64,000 nucleotides of DNA from Alphaproteobacteria bacterium (GTDB taxonomy: Bacteria; Pseudomonadota; Alphaproteobacteria; UBA9219): contig JAFALY010000033.1 of NCBI GenBank assembly GCA_019233975.1, positions 16,602 to 80,601 on the forward strand, in the 5' to 3' direction. Made by a program: the position numbers and the translations under genes. The number at the start of each line of letters is the position of its first letter. Position 1 is the stretch's first letter. The notes under the pieces are model-generated. The model was given only the letters and a program-made list of their open reading frames with translations. It did not search any database and was not told the DNA's origin. Below, piece after piece: positions 8,076 through 57,875 of the stretch.

Positions 8076-11000
8076 GTATTTGCCCTTCTACTGAATTTTC
8101 ACTATCTGCACGGGTCAACGGACGGTTAGCATGCACGAGGCTAAACACCGCAGGCACAAAAAAGAGAGTCGCCACCGTTGCCATCACCAAACCGCCGATA
8201 ACGGCACGACCTAATGGCGCGTTCTGCTCACCGCCATCGCCAAGACCCAATGCCATAGGCACCATGCCGATAATCATGGCCAGCGCTGTCATCATAACGG
8301 GGCGCAGGCGTGTAACGCCAGCCTCCAGCGCAGCCTGCACCGCACTACAACCGTATTCATGCATGCGTTCGCGCGCAAAGCTGACGATAAGAATACTGTT
8401 CGCAGTCGCAACCCCCATACACATGATGGCCCCAGTCAAGGCCGGAACACTAAGTGTTGTGTGTGTTAGAAAGAGCATCCAGACAATGCCCGCCAATGCA
8501 CCCGGCAGGGCTGTGATAATAATGAAAGGATCCGTCCAGGATTGGAAGTTTACGACAATCAGGAAATAAATAAGGACGATGGCCCCCAACAAGCCGAAAG
8601 CAAGGCCCGTAAATGAATCCACCATGGTCTTCATCTGACCGCGGGCAACAATACGCGTACCTTTCGGCAAGTCTTTCTCGGCTGTTTGCAATATTTTATT
8701 GATGTCAGAAGCGATAGACCCCATGTCACGATCCTGCGCAGCGGCAAAAATATCAATAACCGGCTGTACATTATAATGCGATATAACGGCAGGGCCAACA
8801 CCACGCTCCACCGTTGCCAATGATCCAAGTATTTGCGGTTTACCACCCAACGAGGAGGTCACAGGTATATTGCGCAAATCCTCCAACGACGTCAGTGAAT
8901 ATTGTGGCGACTGCGTCACGACATTATAAGAAACCCCATTTTTGGGATCCACCCAGAAGGTTGGCGAGGTCTGGAAACTGCCGCTCAATGAAATCAGCAT
9001 ATTTGTGGCAATGTCACGCTGTGTAATGCCCAATTCCTGTGCACGCGTTCTATCAACCGTCACGTTAAATTCTGGCGCATTAAAGGCTTGCTGTATATGG
9101 CCGTCGACGACCCCTGTTACATGGCGGATTTGATCAAGCAATTTGTCAGCCACAATACGATTAGCCGCGACATTATTGCCGATCACCTGGATATCGATTG
9201 GTGATGGCAGACCAAAATTCAAAATCTGGCTGGTAATGTCTGCTGGCAGAAACGAGAAACTGACGTTCGGCATGGCACCACTTAATTCCGCACGCAATTG
9301 CCGTACATAATCAGCCGTCGGCTTATGTTCAGATGTCAGCGAAATAAAGATGTCGGCATCTTCGGGACCAATCGGGGCTGAATTACTATAAGTCAGATTA
9401 ATACCGCTGTTCGGCAATCCCACATTGTTGACAATGCTTTGCAGGTCATCCTTACCAATAACGTCGCGAATTGTCGTGGCAACCTGATCACAAATGGCTG
9501 CCGTCTCCTCAACACGTGTGCCGGTCGGCGCACGCAGATGTAACTTGATCTGCCCCGCATCAATTAATGGAAAAAAATCAGAACCAAGCCACGGCCCTAA
9601 CACGACAATGGACCCCAATATCAAAGCCAAAAAGCCAGTTATAAAAGAGCGCCGATGTTGTAACGCCGACTCCAGCACAACCTTATATCCACCACGGTAG
9701 GAGTCAAAGCCACGCTCAAACGTCATTTGTATTTTCTGCAATGGATTTCTGGTTGTCGCTTTTTCATGCGACGGCACATGGATACGCAACAGATATTTAG
9801 CCATCGTGGGTACAAGCGTACGCGACAGAAAATAGGATGCCAACATGGCAAAGATAACGGCCTCCGCCATTGGCACGAACAGATAGCGGGCAACACCGGT
9901 CAGGAAAAACATGGGCACGAACACAATGCATATGCATAGCGTAGACACAAGCGCCGGAATGGCAATCTGCTGCGCCCCGTCCAGAATAGACTGGATAACC
10001 CCTTTTCCCTGCTCCAGATGCCAGTTGATGTTTTCAATGGCAACGGTGGCGTCATCAACCAAAATACCGACGGCGAGCGCCAATCCACCCAAAGTCATAA
10101 TATTGACAGTCTCGCCTAATGCCGACAGCACGATGATTGAGACAAGAATAGACAACGGGATTGAAACAACAATGATGAGCGTACTGCGCCAGCTGCCCAA
10201 AAACAAAAGGATCATCATCCCGGTTAGGGCGGCCGCAATGACACCTTCACGGACAACACCGCTGATGGCCCCCTGCACAAATACAGATTGATCGCCGATG
10301 GGATGCAGACTGAGTGTTGACGGCAAACTGGCCTTGATTTGAGGCAAAGTTTTCTTCACCCGCTCAATAATATCCAAGGTCGAGGCGCTACCTGTTTTTA
10401 ACACCGTCATTAAGGCGGCACGTTGTCCATCCACACGAACAATGTTGGTCTGCGGCGCAAAACCATCACGCACATGGGCAACATCACGCACATGAATGAT
10501 CGTGCCATTGACAGCCTTGATAGGCATGTCATTGAGTTGATCAACCACCGTCGGGCTAGCGTTCAGCTTGATGTTGTATTCCAACGCACCAATTTTCTCG
10601 GTGCCAGCTGGGATAATCAGATTTTGCGCGCCTATGGCAGCGTTCACATCTTGCGCCGAAAGGCCCAACGCCTGCAGGCGATTCTGGTCAAGATCGACTA
10701 ATATCTGTCTTACCTTTCCACCATAAGGGAACGGCAAAGCAGCCCCCTGCACCGTCGCCAATTGCGTACGAATAAAATTATTGCCGGCATCAAATAGCTC
10801 CTGCTCGGACAATTGCTGACTGGACAATGCCAACTGCATAATCGGCACGCTGGAGGCATTATAACTTAGCACCAACGGTGGTGTTGAGCCGGGCGGCATG
10901 CTTTTCAACAATGTTTGCGATATTGCCGTAACCTGAGATAAGGCAACATCGATGTTGGTATTGGGTTGGAAATAGATTTTAATAACAGCCACGCCCGTTA

Positions 11001-11256
11001 AAGTCTGCGATTCAATGTGTTCAATATCATTAACGGTTGTTGTCAGTGCGCGTTCAAACCCGCTGACCATATAGTTTGACATCTGATCCGGCGGCAAGCC
11101 TGAGAAAGACCACACAACGCCTACCACGGGGATATTGATCGTCGGGAAAATATCCTTGGGCGTACGCATGATGGTTAGCGGCCCTAGAATGAGGAGAAGA
11201 AGCGCCAGCACCACAAATGTGTAGGGCCTGCTGAGCGCGATACGTACGATCCACAT
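8068..11256 (-). CDS. RND efflux inner-membrane transporter (AcrB/HAE1-like)
   Basis: 1062 aa. N-terminus 'MWIVRIALSRPYTFVVLALLLLILG' and 12-TM AcrB-like layout ('VGILVDDATVAIENI'). Confidence 0.95.
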   Translation of the reverse strand: MWIVRIALSRPYTFVVLALLLLILGPLTIMRTPKDIFPTINIPVVGVVWSFSGLPPDQMSNYMVSGFERALTTTVNDIEHIESQTLTGVAVIKIYFQPNTNIDVALSQVTAISQTLLKSMPPGSTPPLVLSYNASSVPIMQLALSSQQLSEQELFDAGNNFIRTQLATVQGAALPFPYGGKVRQILVDLDQNRLQALGLSAQDVNAAIGAQNLIIPAGTEKIGALEYNIKLNASPTVVDQLNDMPIKAVNGTIIHVRDVAHVRDGFAPQTNIVRVDGQRAALMTVLKTGSASTLDIIERVKKTLPQIKASLPSTLSLHPIGDQSVFVQGAISGVVREGVIAAALTGMMILLFLGSWRSTLIIVVSIPLSILVSIIVLSALGETVNIMTLGGLALAVGILVDDATVAIENINWHLEQGKGVIQSILDGAQQIAIPALVSTLCICIVFVPMFFLTGVARYLFVPMAEAVIFAMLASYFLSRTLVPTMAKYLLRIHVPSHEKATTRNPLQKIQMTFERGFDSYRGGYKVVLESALQHRRSFITGFLALILGSIVVLGPWLGSDFFPLIDAGQIKLHLRAPTGTRVEETAAICDQVATTIRDVIGKDDLQSIVNNVGLPNSGINLTYSNSAPIGPEDADIFISLTSEHKPTADYVRQLRAELSGAMPNVSFSFLPADITSQILNFGLPSPIDIQVIGNNVAANRIVADKLLDQIRHVTGVVDGHIQQAFNAPEFNVTVDRTRAQELGITQRDIATNMLISLSGSFQTSPTFWVDPKNGVSYNVVTQSPQYSLTSLEDLRNIPVTSSLGGKPQILGSLATVERGVGPAVISHYNVQPVIDIFAAAQDRDMGSIASDINKILQTAEKDLPKGTRIVARGQMKTMVDSFTGLAFGLLGAIVLIYFLIVVNFQSWTDPFIIITALPGALAGIVWMLFLTHTTLSVPALTGAIMCMGVATANSILIVSFARERMHEYGCSAVQAALEAGVTRLRPVMMTALAMIIGMVPMALGLGDGGEQNAPLGRAVIGGLVMATVATLFFVPAVFSLVHANRPLTRADSENSVEGQIHD

Positions 11257-11947: not shown

Positions 11948-13459
11948 CTATTGGTTAGTTAAGGCGTATTTTCGTATCGTAAACGCGAACACACTTCCCC
12001 GCCCCGGTGTTGACGTGGCCCATATTCTGCCGGAATGATTTTCTGCAATTTTTTTGCATATACTCAACCCCAGGCCAACGCCCTGGATTTGATCCCATGA
12101 ATGTAACCGCCGGAACGGTTCAAAAACCTGTTCCAGATATTCAGGTTTGATGCCCATACCATTATCGGTGACGGATAACTGCCAGACATCCCCTTGATCC
12201 TGAATACCCATATGAATGCGCGGCACATTGTTTTCTGGCTGATATTTAATGCCGTTGGCAACAAGGTTCTGCAACAACCGCAGAAGCTGCACCGGGTTTC
12301 CATACAAAGTCGGGAACTGGTCGCATGTAATTTCAACACCGCGCTCTTCGATCAGCCGCCTTAAGTTACCCAAAAGGCCACTGACCAGCTCCTGCCCATC
12401 AAAATCGCGCATTTGCGTATTATCGGATTCAAGGCGTGAATAGGCCAGCAGGTCATCCACCATATCCTTCAATCGCCCACCGGAATTAATGACAACGTCC
12501 AGATATTCTTTTCCCTCTTCGTCCAGAAGGCTTTCGTAATCGCTCTTAATCAACGCGCTGAAATTCGTGATCATGCGGATGGGCTCTAACATATCATGTG
12601 ATGCGATATAGGCGAAGCGCTCCAGCTTTGTATTGGACTCCGCAAGTTTCTGGATCAGCCGCTCCCTTTGCGACTCCAGTGACTTGCGCAAACTGCAATC
12701 CTGAACTGCGGCAATGACCTGCATCTTGCCGTCCGGCAGTTTTGTTTTACTAAGGCCAATTTCCAACGGCACCACACTGCCGTCTTTGCGCTTACCAACC
12801 ACATCACGCCCCAGCGCCATCTGACGCGCACCGCCAGCTAACATGTACTGCGACATATCTTGTTGATGTTTGGAAAGATATTGCTCAGGGATCAGCACCT
12901 CAATTTTCTGGCCGATCAATTCGCTCTCCTCATAATCAAAAATTTTGAGCAAGGACGTGTTGACCGATGTAATCGTGCCCGTAATATCGACGGTCATAAT
13001 GCCGCCGGGCGCCGCATTCATAATGGCTAACAGGCGCAAGGACTCCCCGCGCAGCGCATTTTCTGCATTCTTTTGCGCCGTCATGTCGCGGATAATGCCC
13101 ACGAACACGCGCTTTTCTCCGACGATCATATCGTTGACGCCCAGTTCCATGGGAAACACTTCACCGGATTTACGTCGCCCTGAAACTTCACGACCAATGC
13201 CGATCACCTTCCTGCTGCCGGTCTCTAGATAATTGTGAATGTAGGCGCCATGCTCAGAATGATAAGGCTCCGGCATCAACATGTTCACATTGAGCCCCAT
13301 GACTTCTTCCGGCTGATAGCCAAAGATCTGCGTTGCAGCTTTATTAAAGCTGAGGATCTCACCTCTGCTATTGATCATGACGATACCCTCGAGAACTGTA
13401 TCGAGAACAGTGTTGAGCGGTACGTTTCCTTCAAAGACGTTTTGCATCGGGGCGTCCAC
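11948..13459 (-). CDS. Cytoplasmic PAS-PAS sensor histidine kinase
   Basis: Two PAS-like repeats ('GIVMINSRGEILSFNKAATQIFGY', 'GIMTVDITGTITSVNTSLLKIFDY'). H-box 'FAYIASHDMLEPIRMI'. ATPase motifs 'VTDNGMGI' and 'GVGLGLSICKKI'. No TM segment. Confidence 0.9.
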   Translation of the reverse strand: MDAPMQNVFEGNVPLNTVLDTVLEGIVMINSRGEILSFNKAATQIFGYQPEEVMGLNVNMLMPEPYHSEHGAYIHNYLETGSRKVIGIGREVSGRRKSGEVFPMELGVNDMIVGEKRVFVGIIRDMTAQKNAENALRGESLRLLAIMNAAPGGIMTVDITGTITSVNTSLLKIFDYEESELIGQKIEVLIPEQYLSKHQQDMSQYMLAGGARQMALGRDVVGKRKDGSVVPLEIGLSKTKLPDGKMQVIAAVQDCSLRKSLESQRERLIQKLAESNTKLERFAYIASHDMLEPIRMITNFSALIKSDYESLLDEEGKEYLDVVINSGGRLKDMVDDLLAYSRLESDNTQMRDFDGQELVSGLLGNLRRLIEERGVEITCDQFPTLYGNPVQLLRLLQNLVANGIKYQPENNVPRIHMGIQDQGDVWQLSVTDNGMGIKPEYLEQVFEPFRRLHSWDQIQGVGLGLSICKKIAENHSGRIWATSTPGRGSVFAFTIRKYALTNQ

Positions 13460-14412: not shown

Positions 14413-14940
14413 ATGCGTCAGAATATAGCTTACGCAGAAAAAGAATCCGCCGGCCAAAGCACTGCCGTTCGATCTTTCCCTCCGCATGTTCCCAACAAGC
14501 CGTCGCGCATTCTTGCAACCAGCGGTAATGATGACGAAGCGGCTGACACGCTGATCTATGACTTCTTGCTGGTTGAGGATTCACGCCCCGATGCAATCTT
14601 GACCAAGATCGCTCTTGAAAGCCTCGGCATGGGGTACAATCTGATCCACCTTGAAAAAGGCGGCGACGTTATCCCCTATCTTATGGCGAACGCGAACAAC
14701 AAACCCGACCTTCTGATCCTGGATTTAGGATTACCTGACCTTAGCGGCTTTGATGTTCTGGAACATATATCCACCCTGCCCGCGCCTTCGCGCGATTTTC
14801 CGATCATCATTGTCACCGGATACAACGACTTTCAATATGTGCAGAACAATCAGCTGTTACTGATTAAGGGGTATGTTCATAAATCCGCGCTTCGGCTGAC
14901 AATTCACAAAGCCGTGCGTCGTGCTCTGTTCGACGAATAA
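14413..14940 (+). CDS. Response regulator, receiver domain only, with an N-terminal extension of about 50 aa
   Basis: 'FLLVEDSRPD', 'LLILDLGLPDLSG', 'IIIVTG', 'YVHK'. GGGAGGGG Shine-Dalgarno upstream of the ATG at 14413. Confidence 0.8.
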   Translation: MRQNIAYAEKESAGQSTAVRSFPPHVPNKPSRILATSGNDDEAADTLIYDFLLVEDSRPDAILTKIALESLGMGYNLIHLEKGGDVIPYLMANANNKPDLLILDLGLPDLSGFDVLEHISTLPAPSRDFPIIIVTGYNDFQYVQNNQLLLIKGYVHKSALRLTIHKAVRRALFDE

Positions 14941-14960
14941 ACCTCGCCCTTTCACTATCC

Positions 14961-16223
14961 CTAAAACTCCCACGAATCCGGTACTCGCTGAAAAGCCGCG
15001 TGCCCCGTAAAGCGTCGCACCTGCTGATCGTGTAATCCCCAGGTAACCGCACCACGACCGAAACGACCATTAATCTTATCCATCACCGGCGACAAAGGGC
15101 GGGATTGCACAGCCGTGCTTTGTGCTGGCATCACACCCTCGGTAAACAGGTCCAGTTGATGCCGAGCGGCAGGGACCAGATCCATCAGTACCATGCCCAC
15201 TTTAACCGGCCAGCATGCGGGCACGCCGCGCCACAAATCCATCAGGCGGGTCTGCATAAAGCCCGTGTCCTGCGTTTCGTGAAAACCGACCTCACCCCAC
15301 CAATTCCCAAGTCCCGATATGCGCGATAAATACAACCCCATGCGGCGCGCATAATAACCTTTATGCCGCAACCGCTCACCAGCCTTAGCCAGCAGATGCT
15401 GGGAAAACTGGCGCGCCCCTTCCATGGTACGCAAGGCCGGTTCCAATACATGTTCATGGCTGATACTGCGGCTTTCCTGCGAAGACGGAAACTGTAAATC
15501 CGCCCCGTGCAACAGTTCGTAATACAGAACCCCTGTTACACCGCCCCACGCCCGACGCAACACATCACGCGATGCGCGCATCAGATCCTCAACCGTGCCG
15601 ATCCCCGCCATGTTCAGGCGATGCTCCATACGCCGGCCAATGCCATAGATGTCTGTCAGTTTGAGACGATGCAAAATATGCGGCAAGTCTGACTTGGTAA
15701 TTGTCACCAGCCCATCCGGCTTCTGCATGTCACTGCCCACTTTGCCCAGAAACATATTGGGCGCAAGACCAATCGAACACGTCATACGCTCCCCTACATG
15801 CTGTCTGATGGCCGCCTTGACGCGATGCGCCAATGCCTGCGCTCCGCTAACCGTACGTTCTGCCCCCATCAGGCGGCAGGCCATTTCGTCAATCGAACAC
15901 ACCTTTTCAACCGGCAGGCAGGTATCAACCGCCGCAATGACGCGATGGTGGTAATCGACATAGAGCTTGTGCCGCGCCCTAACCAGAACCAGGTCGCGGC
16001 ACATCTGTTTGGCTTCCCATATTGCCGTGCCGGTCTTGATGCCATAAGCCTTGGCTTCATAGCTGGCGGCAATCGCGCAGGTACTTTCCGTATCGGTTGG
16101 CACAACGGCAACCGGGCGCCCACGCAGTTCCGGCCTTTCCTGCTGTTCGCACGATGCGAAAAAGCTGTTCAAATCCAGAAACAGCCAATTGACAGAATGT
16201 TCCGCTGAAGCTAGTTTGTTCAT
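14961..16223 (-). CDS. Y-family (DinB/UmuC-like) translesion DNA polymerase
   Basis: 'WLFLDLNSFFASCEQQERPELRGRPVAVVP' and 'CSIDEMACRL' match the catalytic Asp/steric-gate and SIDE motifs of active Y-family polymerases. Confidence 0.85.
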   Translation of the reverse strand: MNKLASAEHSVNWLFLDLNSFFASCEQQERPELRGRPVAVVPTDTESTCAIAASYEAKAYGIKTGTAIWEAKQMCRDLVLVRARHKLYVDYHHRVIAAVDTCLPVEKVCSIDEMACRLMGAERTVSGAQALAHRVKAAIRQHVGERMTCSIGLAPNMFLGKVGSDMQKPDGLVTITKSDLPHILHRLKLTDIYGIGRRMEHRLNMAGIGTVEDLMRASRDVLRRAWGGVTGVLYYELLHGADLQFPSSQESRSISHEHVLEPALRTMEGARQFSQHLLAKAGERLRHKGYYARRMGLYLSRISGLGNWWGEVGFHETQDTGFMQTRLMDLWRGVPACWPVKVGMVLMDLVPAARHQLDLFTEGVMPAQSTAVQSRPLSPVMDKINGRFGRGAVTWGLHDQQVRRFTGHAAFQRVPDSWEF

Positions 16224-22098: not shown

Positions 22099-22257
22099 AT
22101 GGGACATGACGTTTCGCGGCACAGTTTATTAAACGTGACCATTCTGGCAGCCATGGTTGTCTTTCTGGGCGGTTTGATATGGCTTGCTGGTTCGCACATT
22201 GCCCCGCCCAAGCAGAAGGTCGAACAAACCATCCCTGATGAACGTATTCCCCGCTAA
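22099..22257 (+). CDS. Possible 52-aa single-pass membrane protein
   Basis: The ATG at 22099 gives 'MGHDVSRHSLLNVTILAAMVVFLGGLIWLAGSH...'. There is no clear Shine-Dalgarno. It overlaps the next gene's start by 20 nt. Confidence 0.35.
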   Translation: MGHDVSRHSLLNVTILAAMVVFLGGLIWLAGSHIAPPKQKVEQTIPDERIPR

Positions 22258-24178
22258 GCGACTGGTTCCGGCCCTATTAGGTCTTGCTGTTCTGTGCAAC
22301 ACAGTGACGGCGCTCGCTCAGTCAAACGACAGAGCCGCCAGCTTCATGATCGATGCACAGGCACCTGTTGCACAAGATCCGGCCAAGGCGCCACCGCTAG
22401 CCCTCATGCCAGCACCGGTAGTTTCCACGACACCAGCGACGACAGAATCTACGGGTATAGGAACAGCCGCACCGGCTACTGCGAAATCAACGGCCACTGC
22501 CAGCCCTGCGGTCGATTTGGGGCAACCTGTCACGACTACGGCTTTGTCTGAAGTCAAACCGGACTCAATCGGCCTACTGGATAACGGCAAGGAAGGCCTT
22601 GGCGCGACGATGTGGAAAGGCACATCACGCAGCTTTGTCACCACGCTGTTACCTGCAATTAATTTGCCCACCCCTTCCCCGACCTTGAACAGCCTAGCGC
22701 GCCGCCTGTTGCTGACAACCGCGACGGCACCCGAAGGCGAAGATAACAAAAGCCTGACGCTAACGGCCGCCCGCGCAGAAGCTTTGGTTTCTTTGGGATA
22801 CGCTGGTGAGGCGTGGAAGCTGACGCAGCTCGCCAAGGCCGATCAGTTTGATGAGATCACCTACAGCCAGATTGCCGAGGCCGGGCTGGTCACGCCATCA
22901 ATTGCTGACGATGTCTGCGCCCGTCTGTCTGATATCATGAAATCACGCAGCAGCCTTGAATGGCAGAAGCCACTAGCCATATGCCAGTTGCGCGCCAAAG
23001 ATACCAAGGCCGCCCAAGTTGCTGTTGATTTGCTGCGCGCACAGGGCGATAAGGACGACACCTTTGCCTCAATTATCGAGAAAAATATCATTGGCGGCGG
23101 CAAGCAGTTGCCACGCCAACTGACGCCGCTTAAGGCCACAACATTGGCATTGATCCGCATGACCGAACTGCCCCTGCGTGATGAGGTCTATGCCCGCTCG
23201 GAGCCTGCCCTTTTCTCGGAATTGATGCAGACGAAAGCCAGCAGCCCCTATTCCCTTACAAGTATGGCCGAGCAAATGGCGCGTCACGGCCTGGCCACGG
23301 CTGACACGTTAAAAGCCGCCTATCAAACCGCCGCCACAATACAGGATGATCCGCAAACGACCCTGTCTACACGCGACCGCGACATAAGATCGCGCGCCAT
23401 CCTGTTTCAGGCCTACCTGCAAGTCAAAGATCCCAAGGAACGGATCGCCAAAGCTGCCGAGTTGCTGGATGCACAAGACGCGGCAACCCGTAACGGGGCT
23501 TTCTCTGGAATGATCGCAGACACCCTCAGCGACCTTGCGCCCAGCGCAGACTACAACGCGCTGGCCGGTAATATGGCCGAAGTGCAGATTTTTGGCGGCA
23601 AACCGGACTTTGCCCTTGCATGGCTGAAGCAGGCGCGCATTGCCGGTATTGGCATTCCCGCTGTCGCTGATGCTTTGCGTAATCTGTGGCCGGTTATCGC
23701 CATATCCGGTTTTGAGTCAGAGGCTGATTTCAACCGCCATCTGGCCGAGTGGGAAGATCATATGCTGATCCCGCCAGATGATGGTCGTACGGATCTGCGT
23801 GATCTGAAATTAAGTATTCAAAACATCCTGCAAATTGTCGAAGCGGCTGGCTTCACAATCCCGGACGACGCCTGGGTTAAATGCTTTACGCCGCCAGAAC
23901 TTGATAAGCGCGCCTACCCCAGCGCTTATAGCCTCAGCCGCCTGCAGCGCGCTGCCGCCGCAGGCCGTCGCGGTGAAACGGTTTTAGCGGCCTTGTCTGT
24001 GGTCAGTCCGTTTGCAAAGTCAAACAGCAGCAACCCGAACGCCAGCGAACCGCCAGTCTATGCCTGGGTTGCCGTTATCACAGCCCTGCGTCAGGTCGGG
24101 CTGAACAGCGATGCAGCTCTGTTGGCGAAAGAAGTTATGGGCAGGCTTATGGAAAAGCCCGCCGCACAAGCCCGCTAG
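22238..24178 (+). CDS. Large secreted/periplasmic protein of unknown function
   Basis: The ATG at 22238 gives signal peptide 'MNVFPAKRLVPALLGLAVLCNTVTALAQS'. This is followed by an Ala/Pro/Thr-rich linker and a long helical region. No recognisable catalytic motif. Confidence 0.7.
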   Translation: MNVFPAKRLVPALLGLAVLCNTVTALAQSNDRAASFMIDAQAPVAQDPAKAPPLALMPAPVVSTTPATTESTGIGTAAPATAKSTATASPAVDLGQPVTTTALSEVKPDSIGLLDNGKEGLGATMWKGTSRSFVTTLLPAINLPTPSPTLNSLARRLLLTTATAPEGEDNKSLTLTAARAEALVSLGYAGEAWKLTQLAKADQFDEITYSQIAEAGLVTPSIADDVCARLSDIMKSRSSLEWQKPLAICQLRAKDTKAAQVAVDLLRAQGDKDDTFASIIEKNIIGGGKQLPRQLTPLKATTLALIRMTELPLRDEVYARSEPALFSELMQTKASSPYSLTSMAEQMARHGLATADTLKAAYQTAATIQDDPQTTLSTRDRDIRSRAILFQAYLQVKDPKERIAKAAELLDAQDAATRNGAFSGMIADTLSDLAPSADYNALAGNMAEVQIFGGKPDFALAWLKQARIAGIGIPAVADALRNLWPVIAISGFESEADFNRHLAEWEDHMLIPPDDGRTDLRDLKLSIQNILQIVEAAGFTIPDDAWVKCFTPPELDKRAYPSAYSLSRLQRAAAAGRRGETVLAALSVVSPFAKSNSSNPNASEPPVYAWVAVITALRQVGLNSDAALLAKEVMGRLMEKPAAQAR

Positions 24179-35454: not shown

Positions 35455-35553
35455 GTGGGAGATTGAACGGCGACCCGGATCGAAACGTGTTACGGCTGCT
35501 TCCTTTCGGACCTGACCGGGTTGGCACGGGATTCGCCCGCCGCCAACCTCCCG
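35455..35553 (-). ncRNA. ffs: Signal recognition particle RNA (4.5S RNA)
   Basis: The minus strand reads ...GGGAGGUUGGCGGC...CCCGGUCAGGUCCGAAAGGAAGCAGCCGUAAC...GCCGUUCAAUCUCCCACCCC. This contains the conserved domain IV motif GGUCAGGUCC-GNRA-GGAAGCAGCC, with 5'/3' ends that pair (GGGAG/CUCCC). The ends are approximate to +/-5 nt. Confidence 0.9.
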
Positions 35554-39272: not shown

Positions 39273-40535
39273 TCAAACCTTCCTCACCACCCGCTCAACC
39301 GGGAAAGTCAACGTCACGCTGGTCCCCACGCTGACCTTGCTTTGCAGGTCGAAAATACCGTCATGTAGTTCCACGAGCGCCTTGGTCAGAGGCAAGCCAA
39401 GCCCCGTTCCCTGATGCGTACGGCTGAGGGCACTTTCAATCTGGCCAAATGGCGCCAGCGCCACCGGAATATCTTCAGGCGCAATGCCAATACCCGTATC
39501 CGTCACGCGGATAACAATGCGGTTTTTGTCATCCATATAGGCTTCAAGGGTCACATCACCGCCTTCAGGCGTAAATTTGATGGCATTCGTCAAAAGGTTG
39601 GTCAGCACCTGCTTGATCGCGCGTTCTTCGCCACGCAAAGCGGGCATATCACGCGCGACACGAACGTTCAGATGCTGCTTGCTCATCTTCGCGCGCGCCG
39701 CGACCAGGCGCACCACCGACTGCACCGTATTGTCGATGTCCATATTGGTTTCTGCAAGGTCGCGCTTACCGGATTCAATTTTCGACATATCCAGAATGTC
39801 ATTAATCAAGGACAGCAACAACGAACCGCTGTCAAAAATATCACTGGCATACTCGACATATTGCGCCTGACCGACGGGGCCGAACATTTCGCCTTTAATG
39901 ATTTCGGCAAAACCGATAATGGCGTTCAACGGCGTACGCAATTCATGGCTCATATTCGCAAGAAATTCCGATTTACTGCGGTTAGCAAAATCAGCCTGTT
40001 CTTTGGCTTGCAACAACGCGATCTCCGCCTTGCGTCGTTCGGTCATGTCAAACATCGTGCATTCGACCGTCGGGCCACACCCGGCTTCGCCCGCAACCAA
40101 ATATCCGCTAATGCTCAGCCACAACGGCCGCCCTGCATTGGTACGCGCTTCTGCTTCGCGCGTCGTAACGCCACCCTGCCCCATGCCCTGCAACCAGGCG
40201 CGGTGGGCGGCCGTGTCCGTGAACAATCCTTCGGCTTTGTCAGGCTGTGCTGCCAATAAGGCAGCAACCGTTTCAAAACCCAGCATTTTTGCCATTGTCG
40301 GGTTCGCATTCAGCCATTGCCCATCCATGGCAATTTCGCAAATGCCGATACCGGCATTTTCAAAAATGGCGCGATAGCTTTGCTCGCTGCGTAGCAGTGC
40401 CTTGGTAACTGTCGTATCAACTTCGGGTTGCACAACCGGCGGCTGCCACGTCCCCGCTTGCGAGGCGTCACCGTCACCATCGGCGGCCTTAACCGCACCC
40501 CAGAGCGAGCGTATCGACGTAAGCAGTGAATCCAT
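39273..40535 (-). CDS. PAS-domain sensor histidine kinase (soluble)
   Basis: PAS '[26 protein letters not shown]'. H-box '[19 protein letters not shown]'. 'VTDTGIGI' and '[13 protein letters not shown]'. Start taken at ATG 40535; the track start 40601 is GTG. Confidence 0.85.
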
Positions 40536-40691
40536 AGCAAATATCCGTAACGAAAAGCTGCTCCAAGATTGGTTAGTAACGCCTAATATCCCGTTAACCA
40601 CATCGGCAGTGGGCTCTAAAGCATTCTCTTAGTCTAGAACATCATTTCTCAATGAGCCTATAGAGTTGGCATGGCCAGCTTGCCTATTCGT

Positions 40692-51809: not shown

Positions 51810-52190
51810 TTATTTCTTGGTCGCAATCTTCTTGCCGGCAATCGGCTTCGCCTTACCCTTACGCGTGCGCGCATTGGTGTGCGTACGCTGACCGCGCACG
51901 GGCAGACCCTTGCGGTGACGCAGACCGCGGTAGCAGCCCAGGTCCATCAGACGCTTGATGTTCATCGCAACTTCGCGACGCAGGTCACCTTCGACCTTAT
52001 AGTGCTTGTCGATGTCTTCGCGGATGCGCAGGATTTCAGCTTCGGAAAGCTGGTTGACGCGCTTGGCCGGATCAATACCGACGCGTGCGCAAATTTCCAG
52101 GGCGTTGGTCGGGCCAATGCCGTAGATGTAGCGCAAAGCGATGTGAAGAGGTTTTCCTGTCGGAATATTGACGCCAGCTATACGAGCCAC
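51810..52190 (-). CDS. rpsM: 30S ribosomal protein S13
   Basis: '[26 protein letters not shown]'. GTG start with GGAG Shine-Dalgarno. Confidence 0.97.
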
Positions 52191-52324
52191 TTTAGTTATC
52201 TCCGTTGTTCAACCCGTCGCCAAAAAACAAAACCACCGTGTGGGCGTCCCTATGACGCACCAGCAACCCTGTTACAGAGGCGCAAAAATGGGTACAGTCC
52301 CGACATTCGGGACCGAGGAGCGGG

Positions 52325-52352
52325 ATTATAGTGATTAAGACTCGCGAGTCAA
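52325..52352 (-). promoter_or_regulatory. Near-consensus sigma70-type promoter upstream of rpsM
   Basis: The minus strand reads TTGACT (52352-52347), a 16-nt spacer, then TATAAT (52330-52325). This is about 135 nt upstream of the rpsM start and about 73 nt downstream of the kinase stop. Confidence 0.55.
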
Positions 52353-52424
52353 GCACTAGAAAGCAATGCAAAATAAGGTATTTTCACATTACTTTACAGC
52401 ATCTTAGGCCGCTCTAGACCCGCT

Positions 52425-54176
52425 CTATTCTGCGCGCTTGGCGGCAGGACCTGCTTCTGAAACAGACATTTTATAGGGCAGAATTATTGTAAAATTGGTG
52501 CCTTTATAAATCTCTGAGGCAACACTGATTTGCCCGCCTAACAATGACACTTCACGCTGCACAGCTTCCAAGCCAACGCCACGGCCGGAAATATCCGTCA
52601 CATTGTCGCGTGTAGAAAATCCCCACGAGAAAATGCGCTGCAAGACCGTCACGTCATCCTCATTATGCCATGTGCCATGAGGATCTTTTTCTCCTAGCTT
52701 CGCCCGAATGCGCGCGGGATCAATACCGTTGCCGTCATCGCTGACAACAATTTTCAATTGCTCTCCGCCCGAAGCCGTTTGAAGCACCTCAGTGGAAATG
52801 GTCACCAGCCCTAACGGCTCCTTGCCGCGCGCCATGCGGGTGATGGGCGCCTCGATCCCGTGGTCGATAATGTTTCTGCACAAATGCGTAAAGGTAAAGA
52901 ACATGTTGCGCAGCGTCTCCATCAACACTGGCGGATTATCGCCGGTGAATTTGATGGGCTTCATCTGCTTGCCCATGATGGTCGCCAGATCTTGCAGCTC
53001 ACGCTCAAACACACGGAAACAATCACGAATGGGAACAGCGGCGATGACGCGCAGATATTCCTGCACAACATCGTTCGGTGCCCTCATTTCCTGCAAGCGC
53101 ACAGCAAAAGCATAGATGGCGCTATCCGCAATTTCACGCATGTCACCGCGACGTTCATAGTCATGGCCGACGATTTCATTGACCTGATCAATGACCGCCT
53201 TCAGCTGGCTCTGGATTTGCAGGCGCCCCTGCTCCAGCACCATCACAAACTGAACATCGCTTTCAATCTGCGTGCTGCGCAGATCAGATTCCAGCTTATG
53301 AATCGTGGTCGAAAGATCCAGCAGATAATAATGCTTCACAGCCGCCTTCAAGGTGTGCAGCAAGCGCAAAATCGGGGCGCCCTCATCACGCTTGGTGACC
53401 TGTTCTGCATCTGTCAAAAACGTACGTATATGCGTGATTGTCGCGAGAAATTGATTACGCTCACGGAAAATGCGCGTGATCATGGCCGCATAGTTTTGTT
53501 GCTGCAGCGTCCTTTGTTGTGCCTCATGCTCTTCTGTCTGATCGGTCGCGATCACTTCAATGTACGTGAGCGCACCCTCACTATTTCGTATCGCACTATA
53601 ATCCAAAGCAACTATACGGCCACCCGTATGCGGGTAGCGCTGCGGCAGAAACTTCACGACATCGTCGAAGCCGAGCGCATGGTTTGGCATAAACAGAATA
53701 TCAAGCCAGTCCTTGAAATCGCCCAGCTCTTCGGCAGGCACCCTTAGAACATCGCTTATTACTTTGCCGGACGGCGCGCATTCCAACAACTCGACACAGG
53801 CGCGCGAGAACACATCGCCACACACACCGTTTTTGTCGAACGAGAAGAAGCCCTGCTTTAGGCTATCAACCAGAACGCGCGTCAATTGCGCGTGGTTTTC
53901 AACCTCACCATGCATACGGAGGTTGAAATAATACATGCCAGCGATACCGGCAGCGGCCGCAATAACAATGACCAAATAGGCCAGCACATTTGTCATGGGG
54001 TGCAGGCCAAACACCGGCAGACCCAAACCGATCAGCAAGCAAATCGTGATCAGCATCATCCCGGCCAAAGAGGTATGAAGCGCATACAAATCGCTTTTAC
54101 CCATAGCGGAAGCTGCGGGGTTAACCTCAGCCTGCTCCTGCGGGGCGGTATCTGGCGTAGACTGTGACATGACCAT
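52425..54176 (-). CDS. Membrane-anchored CheA-family histidine kinase (2 TM + PAS-like + HPt + dimerisation/ATPase core, no CheW-like domain)
   Basis: TMs 'LAGMMLITICLLIGLGLPVFGL' and 'VLAYLVIVIAAAAGIAGMYYF'. HPt 'LLHTLKAAVKHYYLLDL'. CheA-type P4 'VPIRDCFRVFERELQDLATIMGKQ', 'THLCRNIIDHGIE', 'VSDDGNGID', 'GFSTRDNVTDISGRGVGLEAV'. The protein ends about 35 aa later. Start at 54176 or 54170. Confidence 0.8.
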   Translation of the reverse strand: MVMSQSTPDTAPQEQAEVNPAASAMGKSDLYALHTSLAGMMLITICLLIGLGLPVFGLHPMTNVLAYLVIVIAAAAGIAGMYYFNLRMHGEVENHAQLTRVLVDSLKQGFFSFDKNGVCGDVFSRACVELLECAPSGKVISDVLRVPAEELGDFKDWLDILFMPNHALGFDDVVKFLPQRYPHTGGRIVALDYSAIRNSEGALTYIEVIATDQTEEHEAQQRTLQQQNYAAMITRIFRERNQFLATITHIRTFLTDAEQVTKRDEGAPILRLLHTLKAAVKHYYLLDLSTTIHKLESDLRSTQIESDVQFVMVLEQGRLQIQSQLKAVIDQVNEIVGHDYERRGDMREIADSAIYAFAVRLQEMRAPNDVVQEYLRVIAAVPIRDCFRVFERELQDLATIMGKQMKPIKFTGDNPPVLMETLRNMFFTFTHLCRNIIDHGIEAPITRMARGKEPLGLVTISTEVLQTASGGEQLKIVVSDDGNGIDPARIRAKLGEKDPHGTWHNEDDVTVLQRIFSWGFSTRDNVTDISGRGVGLEAVQREVSLLGGQISVASEIYKGTNFTIILPYKMSVSEAGPAAKRAE

Positions 54177-54186
54177 CCGGGGCGGC

Positions 54187-54687
54187 CTAGCTCCGCAACG
54201 CGTCGTGCAGGGCCACATAAATCTGAAACAGCTGGCCGTTAATGTGGAACGGCACGATCATATATTTGCCGCGATGAAATTGACTGACGAAATGCCCTTT
54301 GCCGGTCACAACGCTGGGAATGCCCAGCTTGATCTGATACCCACGCGCGCCCATATCGCGCTTCACCTGGCCGAAAACCATGTTGGTCATTTCACCAACA
54401 GCGTCAACCGCCATTTCATGCGTGATGGTAACAGCTTTGCCGACGACCTGCGGCAGAAGGCTGCGCACCGTTTCATAGCCCATGCACATGGTCATGGTGC
54501 CTTCCAGTTGCGACTGAACGATTGCAATCACGCCAGACACGTCACCGACCAACGATACCATGCCGTCGCCGATTTCATAAGGTCCCGGCACCACGTCGAC
54601 CATAAAGGTTTCGTGCATCACCTTACATACGGCCTGCGAAATTTCGCGCGCCAGCGTTTCATTAAGTGCGAATGGCTGTCCTGACAT
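54187..54687 (-). CDS. CheX-like CheY-P phosphatase
   Basis: 166 aa. 'VSLVGDVSGVIAIV' and the catalytic-type E-x-x-N segment 'AVGEMTNMVFGQVK' typical of the CheX/CheC/FliY class. Confidence 0.7.
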   Translation of the reverse strand: MSGQPFALNETLAREISQAVCKVMHETFMVDVVPGPYEIGDGMVSLVGDVSGVIAIVQSQLEGTMTMCMGYETVRSLLPQVVGKAVTITHEMAVDAVGEMTNMVFGQVKRDMGARGYQIKLGIPSVVTGKGHFVSQFHRGKYMIVPFHINGQLFQIYVALHDALRS

Positions 54688-54730
54688 GCTACTAACCCGT
54701 GGCGCTATGGTTGTTATGTGTGGCTATGGA

Positions 54731-55168
54731 TCAACGCATCGCCTGCGCCGCTTGCTTCTTGCGCTTGATCCATTCGTAAATTTCACCCAGCTTCTTGCTG
54801 AGGTCCGGCGGAGAAACCGGCTTGATGATGTATGAAGTGGCTCCTGCCTTGATGGCCTTCATAATATTCTGCTGTTCCGACTCGGCGGTCAGCATCACAA
54901 AGGCGGTCGCCGCATATTCAGGCTTGGCGCGGAAGAAACTGAGCACTTCCAAACCGGAAATCGTCGGCATGTTCCAGTCCAGAAAGACAACGTCATAGGG
55001 TTGGTTGACTTCGTGCGCCTTTTGCACCAGGTCAATCGCCTCGTTGCCGTCCGCTGCCGTTTGCACATTCAAAATTTTGGCATCCTGGAGCGTATTGCGT
55101 ACAAATTGGCGGATCAGAAAATGATCGTCTGCCACCAGGACTTTCAGGTCTGACATCTGAGCTGTCAC
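54731..55168 (-). CDS. CheY-like single-domain response regulator
   Basis: 'LKVLVADDHFLIR', 'VVFLDWNMPTISG', 'AFVMLTAESEQQNIMKAIKAGATSYIIKP' closely track CheY. GTG 55168 has GGGGAG 8 nt upstream; ATG 55156 is the alternative start. Confidence 0.85.
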   Translation of the reverse strand: MTAQMSDLKVLVADDHFLIRQFVRNTLQDAKILNVQTAADGNEAIDLVQKAHEVNQPYDVVFLDWNMPTISGLEVLSFFRAKPEYAATAFVMLTAESEQQNIMKAIKAGATSYIIKPVSPPDLSKKLGEIYEWIKRKKQAAQAMR

Positions 55169-55371
55169 GGTATCTTCTCCCCGAATGGAAAGGCTGCGAA
55201 AGGCTTGATGATTCAAACCCGTGGGCTGGAGCGAATGCGAAACTGACTTCGTGATACTGCACAAAAAAGATTGCCGCATGGTTAAACAGTTACCACGAAC
55301 TGCTTAGCCAATAGGTTAGGCGAATATTAACCTTGTTTTTTATTAAGTTCCAGACCGTTTATTCTGGCTGA

Positions 55372-56022
55372 TTAGGCTGATTTTACAAGGCGCAGCAGTT
55401 CCGCCTGTACCTGGTTGATTTCGGCCATGCCGTCTATTGCCTGCAACATCCCCTTCTTTTCGTAATAGGGGAGAATCGGTGCGGTCTGCTCCTGAAACGC
55501 CTTCAGGCGTGTTTTCATGGTTTCCGCATTGTCATCTGGGCGGCGCACAAAATCCGTGCTGCCACATGCGTCGCAAACCCCGGCGACCTTGGTTGGCTTG
55601 AATTTATCGTGATACCCTGCCCCGCATTTGGCACAGGTAAAGCGGCCGGAAACACGTTCAATTAACGCCTCATCGTTCACTTTAAGATGAATAACGGCGT
55701 TCAACCCCTTGTTAAGACGGGTCAACATGTCATCCAAGGCTTCAGCCTGCGGTATAGTGCGGGGGAAACCGTCGAGAATGAATCCCTTGGCACAGTCTGG
55801 CTGAACAATCCGGTTTTCGATCAGGTTGACCATCAAATGGTCAGGGACCAATTGCCCGGAATCAATAATAGCCTTCGCCTTTAGGCCAATCGGGTCACCA
55901 TTCTTGATGGCCGCACGCAACATGTCACCGGTTGATATCTGCACCATGCCCAGCTTTTCTTCGAGCATACGCGCTTGTGTTCCCTTACCGGCTCCCGGCG
56001 GCCCGAGCAGAATGATATTCAT
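55372..56022 (-). CDS. adk: Adenylate kinase (long form with Cys4 lid)
   Basis: '[17 protein letters not shown]', '[10 protein letters not shown]', lid 'CAKCGAGYH...CDACGS'. Confidence 0.97.
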
Positions 56023-56082: not shown

Positions 56083-57417
56083 TTACTTGGTACGCAGCTT
56101 CGCTTTTTTGATCAGGCCTTCATATTGATGTGCAATCAGGTGCGACTGAACACGCGAGATGGTGTCAATCGTCACACTGACAACGATCAGCAACGACGTG
56201 CCGCCCAGATAGAACGGGATGGCGCCCTTGCTCATCAAAAATTCCGGCAGCAAGCAGACAACGGCCAGATAGGCCGAGCCGAGCACGGTCAGGCGCGTCA
56301 GCACATAATCGAAATAATCCGATGTACTTTTGCCGGGACGAATGCCGGGGATGAATCCGCCATGCTTCTTCAAATTATCGGCGGTTTCTTCCGGGTTAAA
56401 CACAACCGCTGTGTAGAAGAACGCAAAAAAGATAATCAGGGCCGCATAAAGCACCATAAACAGAGGCTTGCCATGGCCCAACTCGGCAATCAGGTCAGAT
56501 ACCCATCCGCCTTTTTGCTGTACGTCTGTAAAGCTGGCCAATGTCAGCGGGAACAGCAGCAACGAGCTGGCGAAAATCGGCGGGATAACGCCCGAGGTGT
56601 TGATTTTCAGCGGCATGTGCGATGCTTCACCGCCATACATGCGATTACCCACTTGACGCTTTGGATACTGCACCAGAATACGACGCTGCGCACGTTCACA
56701 GAAGACGCAGAGCGCCAAAACACCAAACACCAGAACGAGGATCAGCAGAATAAACCAGGTCGACAAAGCGCCCGTGCGACCGAGTTCAAGAGTCTGCGCC
56801 ATGGCGTTCGGCAGATTGGCAACGATGCCCGAGTAAATAATCAACGATGTGCCATTGCCAATACCGCGCGCGGTGATTTGTTCACCCAGCCACATCAGGA
56901 ACAACGTGCCGCCCGTCAATGTGGCAACCGTGCTGATGCGGAAGAAAAAGCCCGGCGCCACAACCGCGCCGCCGCCCATCATGTTTTCAAGACCGACAGC
57001 CAACGCGTAAGATTGCACAACCGCAAACGCAACGGTCAGATAACGTGAATATTGGTTCAGCTTGGCACGACCGGTATCGCCTTCCTTCTTCAGCGCTTCG
57101 AACTGCGGCAAAATCGCCGACAGCAATTGCACGATGATGGAGGCAGTAATGTACGGCATAACGCTGAGCGCAAACAGGGTCATACGCTTCAAGGCGCCGC
57201 CCGAGAACATGTCGAACATGCCCAGAATACCGCCGCCATGCTGTTTGAAAATCTGGCCGAGCGCGACAGGATCAACCCCCGGCAGCGGAATGTAGGTACC
57301 AATGCGATAGACGATAAGCGCAAGGAAGGTGAACCAGATGCGGCTTTTCAGCTCGGTTGCCTTGGCGAAGGCTGACATTGAGAGGCCAGAGGCAAGCGCG
57401 TCGTTTGTAGATGCCAT
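56083..57417 (-). CDS. secY: Preprotein translocase subunit SecY
   Basis: 'ELKSRIWFTFLALIVYRIGTYIPLPGV', 10-TM layout, 444 aa. Confidence 0.97.
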   Translation of the reverse strand: MASTNDALASGLSMSAFAKATELKSRIWFTFLALIVYRIGTYIPLPGVDPVALGQIFKQHGGGILGMFDMFSGGALKRMTLFALSVMPYITASIIVQLLSAILPQFEALKKEGDTGRAKLNQYSRYLTVAFAVVQSYALAVGLENMMGGGAVVAPGFFFRISTVATLTGGTLFLMWLGEQITARGIGNGTSLIIYSGIVANLPNAMAQTLELGRTGALSTWFILLILVLVFGVLALCVFCERAQRRILVQYPKRQVGNRMYGGEASHMPLKINTSGVIPPIFASSLLLFPLTLASFTDVQQKGGWVSDLIAELGHGKPLFMVLYAALIIFFAFFYTAVVFNPEETADNLKKHGGFIPGIRPGKSTSDYFDYVLTRLTVLGSAYLAVVCLLPEFLMSKGAIPFYLGGTSLLIVVSVTIDTISRVQSHLIAHQYEGLIKKAKLRTK

Positions 57418-57574
57418 TTCAGAGAACCGTTAAGGAAAAGTAGACAGACCTAAAGGATATAGGGCCTGCCGCTGATCAAAACAAGCAATAGATGTCTAAA
57501 ATTAATTGATATCTATAGTTTTTTGCACAGCAACAAAATGCATGCTGGGCCTTCGCGTCTAACAACCCATAGCA

Positions 57575-57604
57575 TTGCTTGCAATACTTCCCTGTGGTTA
57601 TAAT
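57575..57604 (+). promoter_or_regulatory. Putative sigma70-type promoter for the opposite-strand small ORF
   Basis: TTGCTT (57575-57580), an 18-nt spacer, then TATAAT (57599-57604), 31 nt upstream of the ATG at 57635. Confidence 0.45.
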
Positions 57605-57634
57605 CCGTGCGTATTGACATATGTGGAGATTATT

Positions 57635-57784
57635 ATGACAAGCAATGTTCAAAACAATAGTGGTCAAGAAAATGGAACCGCTGAAGAATGGGCCAACTAC
57701 TATAAGGGTGGAACATCGGAGCGCCCCAAAGGTCAAATAGTAGACTGGGCTGCATACCTGAGAGCCATCTTTGGCGGCGGCTAA
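57635..57784 (+). CDS. 49-aa hydrophilic small protein of unknown function
   Basis: GGAGA (57625-57629) lies 5 nt before the ATG. 'MTSNVQNNSGQENGTAEEWANYYKGGTSERPKGQIVDWAAYLRAIFGGG'. It has its own promoter-like and terminator signals. No homology recognised. Confidence 0.5.
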   Translation: MTSNVQNNSGQENGTAEEWANYYKGGTSERPKGQIVDWAAYLRAIFGGG

Positions 57785-57824
57785 TAGATTTCAATTCATT
57801 GACTGACTTAGCGATAGGCAAAAC

Positions 57825-57856
57825 AAAAAAGCTGCAGATTTCTCTGCAGCTTTTTA
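57825..57856. terminator. Bidirectional rho-independent terminator between rplO and the small ORF
   Basis: AAAAAAGCTGCAG-ATTTCT-CTGCAGCTTTTT. The minus-strand RNA gives stem AGCUGCAG/CUGCAGCU followed by UUUUUUGUUUUG, 20 nt after the rplO stop. The plus-strand RNA gives the same stem followed by UUUUU. Confidence 0.75.
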
Positions 57857-57875
57857 AACTTCATAGCCTATAGAC

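Follow-up and report, generated by a model that had tools for sequence, protein, structure and literature searches.

The textbook CheA has no sensing of its own and depends on receptor arrays, its P5 domain being the part that docks it to CheW and the receptors. A membrane-anchored relative, CheA1 of Azospirillum brasilense, presumably combines an N-terminal transmembrane (TM) domain with P3 and P5/CheW and works with chemoreceptors. A further class, the class III histidine kinases (HKIII), which Adebali et al. are said to have defined in 2017, reportedly unites kinases with sensory domains of their own, an Hpt domain and a CheA-like kinase, which lack a dimerization domain and are accompanied by a single-domain response regulator (RR) and CheX; an unorthodox soluble chemoreceptor is said to be present 'in many instances'. 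The same work reportedly proposed that these kinases control type IV pilus motility, as all HKIII genomes are said to carry pilT, and also because of TwmSR of D. nodosus, where TwmS/TwmR affects twitching according to work ascribed to Kennan et al. in 2015. Here we describe a kinase gene in a 64,000-nucleotide stretch of alphaproteobacterial DNA (GTDB lineage UBA9219; GenBank assembly GCA_019233975.1, contig JAFALY010000033.1, positions 16,602 to 80,601), which as a whole is called the window below. Together with the adjoining genes for a CheY-like RR and a CheX-family phosphatase, it likely constitutes a three-gene, receptor-independent phosphorelay of the HKIII type, whose CheA-derived kinase would have lost P2 and P5, kept P3 as a vestige and gained a membrane hairpin and a PAS domain as its input, a reading to which we assign a probability of about 0.72.

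Comparison with described kinase classes

The core of all CheA homologues consists of P1, P3, P4 and P5 (Berry, Andrianova and Zhulin, 2023; PMC10782961). By this definition the kinase of the window is not a CheA, because it has the P1-type HPt histidine and P4 but neither a P3 recognizable as H-kinase_dim nor a P5. Its composition is the one described for HKIII: the sensor lies in the same polypeptide, N-terminal to the rest (a PAS domain at residues 100-213 and a membrane hairpin); an Hpt is followed by a CheA-like HATPase_c with neither a dimerization domain in Pfam nor CheW, although a P3 remnant is visible by hidden Markov model (HMM); and a single-domain RR and a CheX adjoin the kinase in the window and in all seven contexts of its clade, the window included. 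Since own sensor, Hpt, CheA-like kinase, missing dimerization domain and the RR and CheX partners all match, the kinase is probably a member of this little-characterized class, an assignment made feature by feature and not from a tree with published members. The sequence-only reading of this locus, which had not recognized the architecture as that of a characterized system, is superseded on this point by the match to HKIII with the same partners and by the 1,235 sequence clusters that share the core of the kinase (see below). A further likeness to HKIII is that the kinase is not tied to che clusters. Unlike HKIII as described, its clade is alphaproteobacterial and held in the membrane by a conserved two-helix hairpin; part of P3 can still be detected, the locus codes for no soluble chemoreceptor, and its usual place is the interval between adk and rpsM. 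The conserved hairpin and the residual P3 may be particular to this clade, as may its alphaproteobacterial host and its position next to rpsM. The HKIII work is summarized in a citing paper (PMC6501615), beyond which our literature search found nothing directly relevant to HKIII-type kinases.

With canonical class II CheA (P1-P2-P3-P4-P5) the kinase shares the catalytic tetrad of a P1-type HPt, a P4 domain of 35% identity, the CheA-specific GFST...SGRGVGMD signature and a partnership with CheY-like and CheC/CheX-family proteins; unlike CheA, it is without P2 and P5, has P3 only as a remnant, and is membrane-anchored with a PAS input of its own. It resembles A. brasilense CheA1 in being a membrane-anchored CheA-family kinase of an alphaproteobacterium, but differs in the lack of both P3 and P5/CheW. 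Finally, like the class I PAS kinases (WalK/VicK, FixL, YF1), it joins sensor and kinase in one chain, with a comparable succession of TM segments, PAS, helices and GHKL ATPase and with a similar PAS fold. Unlike them, its phospho-acceptor is a CheA-type HPt bundle rather than a HisKA/DHp dimer and its ATPase is CheA-type. The window also codes for two ordinary class I kinases, both on the minus strand (PAS-PAS-HisKA-HATPase_c at 11948-13459 and HisKA-HATPase_c at 39273-40601), which provide an internal contrast to the CheA-type kinase.

Domain organization of the kinase

The features of the kinase gene, all on the minus strand, are as follows:

52425-54176, minus strand: probable HKIII-type kinase, 583 amino acids, with membrane hairpin, PAS, HPt, P3 remnant and CheA-type P4, and no P2 or P5
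53919-54080, minus strand: predicted membrane hairpin, with TM1 (residues 33-56), loop GLHPMTN (57-63) and TM2 (64-86), from Kyte-Doolittle peaks and AlphaFold2 helices at 29-56 and 64-105
53538-53879, minus strand: PAS-fold domain, residues 100-213, from AlphaFold2 and Foldseek
53820-53822 and 53796-53798, minus strand: cysteine pair of the PAS domain, C119 and C127
53169-53459, minus strand: HPt (CheA P1-type) helical bundle, residues 240-336, from Pfam Hpt in relatives, structure 2ld6 and BLASTP
53355-53357, minus strand: phospho-acceptor His274
53034-53168, minus strand: degenerate P3-like linker, residues 337-381
52467-53033, minus strand: CheA-type P4 ATP-binding domain, residues 382-570, with N box HLCRNIIDHGIE, G1 box DDGNG, F box IFSWGFST and G2 box SGRGVGL

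The sequence-only reading had described this gene as coding for a kinase with two closely spaced TM helices, a cytoplasmic PAS-like segment, an HPt signature and a CheA-type P3/P4 core but no CheW-like domain, and the four peptides that it quoted are all present in the product. The 583-residue translation is identical to the database protein P0001. An alternative in-frame ATG lies upstream at 54218 and would yield 597 amino acids, but at the cost of a 32-nucleotide overlap with the CheX gene, and the homologues begin at or near M1/M3 of the 583-residue form. A chance open reading frame (ORF) was considered as an explanation of 52425-54176 and rejected.

The catalytic domain of the kinase is unambiguously CheA-type. 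Its P4 is 35% identical to residues 317-511 of E. coli CheA (BLASTP, E=5e-32), the hhalign probability for the kinase against CheA is 99.8%, NCBIfam CheA models match it at E=2e-34, and Foldseek gives TM-scores of 0.74-0.80 against CheA P4 structures. In the PDB, CheA chains are matched at E=6e-38, while ordinary kinases align over the G2 region only and reach no better than 3e-5; the ATPase core clusters with CheA rather than with the HisKA kinases. Similarity to E. coli CheA can be followed as far as residues 511-513 of the latter, the border of P4 and P5, with some 13 residues of the kinase left over; Pfam CheW has no match in it even at E<=1, and neither a P2 nor a HisKA domain was detected. 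The absence of a CheW-like domain is in this way borne out, although the distance from the G2 box to the end of the protein, put at about 35 amino acids in the sequence-only reading, measures 47. Because P5 is absent, docking to CheW or to receptors would not be expected.

Of the proposed P3/P4 core, only the P4 part stands in full. The Pfam dimerization model H-kinase_dim (PF02895) has no match in the kinase at E<=1, and the confident alignments by hhalign and BLASTP reach back no further than CheA residues 306-317, which lie within the second helix of P3 and the conserved 'xxVP' junction. Since H-kinase_dim is absent and the homology begins only at about residue 306 of CheA, P3 is, as judged from these alignments, only a remnant. 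The AlphaFold2 confidence is likewise low at residues 338-345.

Several lines of evidence identify the HPt phospho-acceptor domain. All of 31 close homologues have the equivalent of His274, and when 143 or 77 distant representatives are aligned its column alone is invariant, so that the histidine picked out from the sequence alone is upheld by its conservation. BLASTP against E. coli CheA pairs H274, H293 and E296 with H48, H67 and E70, with LRLLHTLKAAVKHY aligned to IFRAAHSIKGGAGTF and TIHKLESDL to TTHLMENLL, and the spacing of H274/K277/H293/E296 equals that of H48/K51/H67/E70 in the E. coli P1 domain, of which this quartet is the known catalytic network. The CheA P1 structure 2ld6 was matched at E=0.006, and the AlphaFold2 model places a four-helix bundle around H274. 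Of 77 representative relatives, 74 exceed the Pfam Hpt threshold, and scores among relatives run from 25 to 46 bits.

The N-terminal part of the kinase was assessed mainly on structural models. A full-length AlphaFold2 model, built from a 31-sequence alignment, has a mean predicted local distance difference test (pLDDT) score of 80; it and the hydropathy profile agree on two TM helices separated by the 7-residue loop GLHPMTN, just as had been claimed. Because the two helices are joined by so short a loop, the kinase should have no periplasmic domain and both of its ends in the cytoplasm; the 32-residue N-terminus and all sequence past TM2 are accordingly predicted to be cytoplasmic. The hairpin is itself well conserved, with H34, G39 and P54 invariant in the close homologues. 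The following segment has no match to Pfam PAS, but a model of residues 88-345 (pLDDT 82) shows the strand and helix order of a PAS domain, and its Foldseek matches comprise the heme-PAS of FixL, the PAS domains of V. cholerae FlrB/VC2136 and of WalK, and LOV domains (E-values from 3e-6 to 1e-3), which lends support to the proposed PAS-like segment. Within it, conservation reaches 90% or more, in alignments of 28 and of 143 diverse relatives, for both C119 and C127 and for the motif SLGQGF..FD..G.C...YS.AC. The two cysteines could accordingly be a site for redox chemistry, a metal or a cofactor; the earlier idea of an intracellular or redox sensor is still a guess, the conserved cysteine pair being the only hint of it.

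A conserved family within a wider superfamily

More than 230 homologues, 40-75% identical and 565-612 amino acids long, keep the entire architecture of the kinase and end at the same point; JGI annotation names many of them 'CheA'. The close homologues come from metagenome-assembled genomes (MAGs) labelled Alphaproteobacteria, Rhodospirillaceae or 'Bdellovibrionales', under which last name NCBI places the alphaproteobacterial genus Micavibrio. The RpoA protein of the window and its Azospirillum counterpart share 76% identity. The lineage would thus be alphaproteobacterial and perhaps, though less surely, Micavibrio-like. A search of the literature on Micavibrio chemotaxis found nothing useful.

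Beyond this family, a phmmer search with residues 1-340 of the kinase against 1.84 billion representatives recovered 1,235 clusters at E<=1e-3, of which 582 pass E<=1e-10; one of the clusters originates from an Oligoflexia MAG. A profile search for the wider superfamily yielded only the close family once more. Since nearly all of the 1,235 cluster alignments run from about residue 95 to 300-340, the PAS-like domain and the HPt appear to be a conserved core rather than a lineage-specific addition, and upstream of this core the relatives carry PAS, GAF, HAMP or CHASE8 domains. By Pfam, 75 of the 77 representative relatives possess HATPase_c and, as noted, 74 possess Hpt, while CheW, H-kinase_dim and HisKA are each found in none of the 77.

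The partners of the core vary across the superfamily. An RR and a CheX also accompany two distant subfamilies, in the arrangements RR-CheX-FIST-histidine kinase (locus L009) and CHASE8-histidine kinase followed by RR-CheX-CheX (L016). Other members are without CheX, namely a HAMP form (L010) and a PAS-PAS form from Bdellovibrio coupled to a FecR-like protein. In the latter (L012, 3836-7953; L011, 2869-6944) the PAS-PAS-Hpt-kinase of about 650 amino acids overlaps the end of a gene for a FecR-like protein of 711-722 amino acids by 4 nucleotides, with no CheX nearby, the kinase core here having partners of another kind. FIST/FIST_C sensor proteins (L009, 3841-5004; L017, 3616-4758) adjoin soluble superfamily members that have no TM segments, which suggests that in these two lineages a separate FIST sensor protein replaces the N-terminal sensor.

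The three-gene unit and its genomic setting

The partner genes and their surroundings in the window comprise:

54731-55168, minus strand: single-domain CheY-like RR, 145 amino acids, with a GTG start at 55168 (the mechanical ORF extends to an ATG at 55279)
54187-54687, minus strand: CheX-family CheY-P phosphatase, 166 amino acids (Pfam CheX, E=2e-16, 60 bits against a cut-off of 27)
56083-57417, minus strand: secY
55372-56022, minus strand: adk
51810-52190, minus strand: rpsM
52325-52352, minus strand: promoter-like, sigma-70-like site TTGACT-16-TATAAT (11/12), in the 234-nucleotide gap between the kinase gene and rpsM (the rpsM leader)

The RR matches Pfam Response_reg at E=8e-27, and among the NCBIfam models CheY PRK10610 fits it best (E=5e-26, under the cut-off of that model). 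It most likely starts at GTG 55168, to judge from its homologues, which are 145-146 amino acids long and start at the aligned V/M, with GGGGAGAAGA lying upstream of the GTG. With E. coli CheY it shares 40% identity, and among the residues in common are D12, D13, D57, T87, Y106 and K109 as well as I95, A103 and K119. In E. coli CheY, I95, A103, Y106 and K119 contact FliM. When the same pairs of genomes are compared, the RR is 77-83% identical, Adk 66-69% and the kinase 48-55%; being more conserved than both the kinase and Adk, the RR is under unusually strong constraint. The CheX protein likewise keeps its motif D-A-V-G-E-M-T-N (catalytic D-x3-E-x2-N) in all homologues aligned.

In the window the minus-strand order is rplF, rplR, rpsE, rpmD, rplO, secY, adk, RR, CheX, kinase, rpsM, rpsK, rpoA, rplQ, such that the RR-CheX-kinase trio (52191-55371) forms a three-gene insertion between adk and rpsM in the ribosomal-protein cluster. 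The gaps are 203 nucleotides between adk and the RR gene, 43 between RR and CheX, 10 between CheX and kinase and 234 between kinase and rpsM. The promoter-like site in the last of these may mark the downstream limit of the module, but it is a consensus match only, and such sites are no more numerous in the region than in shuffled sequence. The rpsM leader has no match to an Rfam family. Further upstream, the gap between rplO and secY (57418-57875, minus strand) holds 458 nucleotides of non-coding DNA, in which a 13-bp hairpin at 57855-57826 resembles a terminator, and at the same position L003 has three extra genes.

The RR-CheX-kinase order recurs in all seven contexts of the membrane-hairpin clade (the window, L003, L006, L007, L008, L013 and L015) and is still kept in L015, where the kinase is only 40% identical. 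Its place in the ribosomal cluster is retained in L003, L007, L008, L013 and L015, down to 40% kinase identity, rpsM coming next after the kinase gene in most contexts and adk often preceding the trio; as its order persists even in L006, where it is away from the ribosomal cluster, the trio is a conserved unit. The location in the ribosomal cluster could reflect either co-expression with housekeeping genes or mere inherited synteny. A translation-linked function was considered from this position and set aside, since it is not separable from inherited synteny given the trio of L006. No mcp or cheW gene was found in the 64-kb window or adjoining the trio in the seven contexts read. L008 carries, some 6 kb beyond the trio on its downstream side, a Protoglobin-MCPsignal gene (14577-15749, minus strand), coding for a soluble heme chemoreceptor-like protein, and because this gene is on its contig, that organism also has chemoreceptors.

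Elsewhere the window includes a bacterial small signal recognition particle RNA (35455-35551, minus strand; Rfam RF00169, 56.7 bits), a 664-amino-acid ORF without a Pfam match at E<=1e-5 (22184-24178, plus strand), an autotransporter beta-domain protein (2527-4167, plus strand) and a complete RND efflux operon of OEP, HlyD-type adaptor and AcrB-type pump (5473-11256, minus strand).

Alternative explanations

Some observations weigh against the interpretation offered here. Pfam Hpt is below threshold in this very kinase (15.1 bits against a cut-off of 24.6). The HMM alignment extends weakly to CheA residues 270-326, which makes a P3 remnant detectable and the loss of dimerization only presumptive. 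HKIII is reportedly narrowly distributed, whereas the core recovered here spans 1,235 representative clusters. Moreover, pilT and other pilus, flagellar and che genes were not found elsewhere in the 64-kb window, in which 20 large ORFs were scanned. One alternative is that the protein is an ordinary class I (HisKA/DHp) PAS kinase, its 'HPt' being in reality a dimeric DHp hairpin: the order of TM segments, PAS, helices and ATPase is similar, and the full-length Foldseek matches include WalK, VicK and YF1. That account is nonetheless very improbable in view of the lack of HisKA in the kinase and its 77 relatives, the restriction of class I matches to the G2-box region at E-values of at least 3e-5 as against 6e-38 for CheA, and the evidence for the HPt from its Pfam scores in relatives, the His/Lys/His/Glu residues at CheA P1 spacing and the modeled four-helix bundle. 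Still less weight, indeed next to none, can be given to a truncated or decaying canonical cheA, be it a pseudogene or an assembly or frameshift artifact deprived of P5. The best curated models are indeed CheA equivalogs that are matched in part only, and the JGI label 'CheA' would agree with such an origin, but more than 230 homologues of equal length sharing the same end point, a conserved N-terminal stretch of 340 residues that is not CheA-like, the absence of CheW from all 77 relatives, and a downstream gap with a promoter-like site followed by rpsM and with no remnants of P5 all speak against it.

The remaining alternatives accept a CheA-derived kinase and concern what controls it and what it controls. 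It could be an accessory CheA that is under chemoreceptor control and is recruited without P5, for instance via the hairpin or the P3 remnant. The unusual conservation of the hairpin, the Protoglobin-MCP gene 6 kb from the trio in L008 and the unorthodox soluble chemoreceptor that HKIII systems reportedly often include would favor this; we consider it unlikely given that the docking domain is missing, that the kinase has a conserved PAS domain of its own and that neither mcp nor cheW lies in the window or beside the trio in the seven contexts. Less easily set aside, though we still hold it the less likely version, is the same relay with an output in type IV pilus motility or in a growth-linked target other than motility, instead of the flagellar motor. 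The pilus output has in its favor the reported HKIII proposal from pilT and TwmSR, summarized in PMC6501615, and the growth-linked output the position of the trio between adk and rpsM in several genomes. Against these stand the 40% identity of the RR to CheY with its FliM-face residues Y106, I95, A103 and K119 kept, which is suggestive only, the absence of pil genes from the window, and the possibility that the ribosomal location is inherited synteny, the trio of L006 being elsewhere. The three-gene, receptor-independent relay is thus the reading that we prefer: as the trio is conserved as a unit with an intact RR and CheX adjoining the kinase, it fits the self-contained, MCP/CheW-independent pathway from sensor to CheY that had been proposed from the sequence alone.

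A proposed signaling route and its implications

The analysis establishes the domain anatomy of the kinase, its catalytic and acceptor residues, the lack of CheW, H-kinase_dim and HisKA, and the conservation of the trio; the direction of phosphotransfer, the role of CheX, what the signal is and where the output lies are inferred. The PAS domain would read a cytoplasmic or membrane-associated cue, possibly by way of Cys119/Cys127, and the conserved hairpin might do so along with it or in its place. The cue would alter the access of P4 to the adjacent P1-type HPt bundle, whereupon P4 would phosphorylate His274 and the phosphoryl group would be passed on to Asp57 of the neighboring CheY-like regulator. 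CheX would then remove the phosphoryl group from the RR, making for a fast and resettable signal. Because the RR has no output domain, it should have to work by binding a target, which might be the flagellar switch, the CheY switch residues being kept, the machinery of type IV pili, as the HKIII work reportedly suggested, or something else. More speculatively, and with low probability in our view, the PAS+HPt+P4 core with its near-universal cysteine pair could be a cytoplasmic thiol/redox or cofactor sensor that drives the flagellar switch (or pili) through a dedicated, unusually conserved pair of CheY and CheX without chemoreceptors and, in this alphaproteobacterial lineage, is co-expressed with the secY-adk/ribosomal cluster in which it is embedded, tying motility to growth or energy. 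If true, taxis would here run through a single sensor protein, alongside chemotaxis based on receptor arrays.

The 'CheA' label that JGI annotation gives to many of these kinases wrongly implies a receptor-coupled chemotaxis system. HKIII has been named as a class but is almost without biochemistry, and the clade described here offers a simple, strongly conserved three-gene version of it with testable residues in His274, Cys119/Cys127 and Asp57 of the RR. A widespread CheA derivative with its own sensor and only CheY and CheX for company would mean that the core of chemotaxis has been turned into a compact one-kinase pathway.

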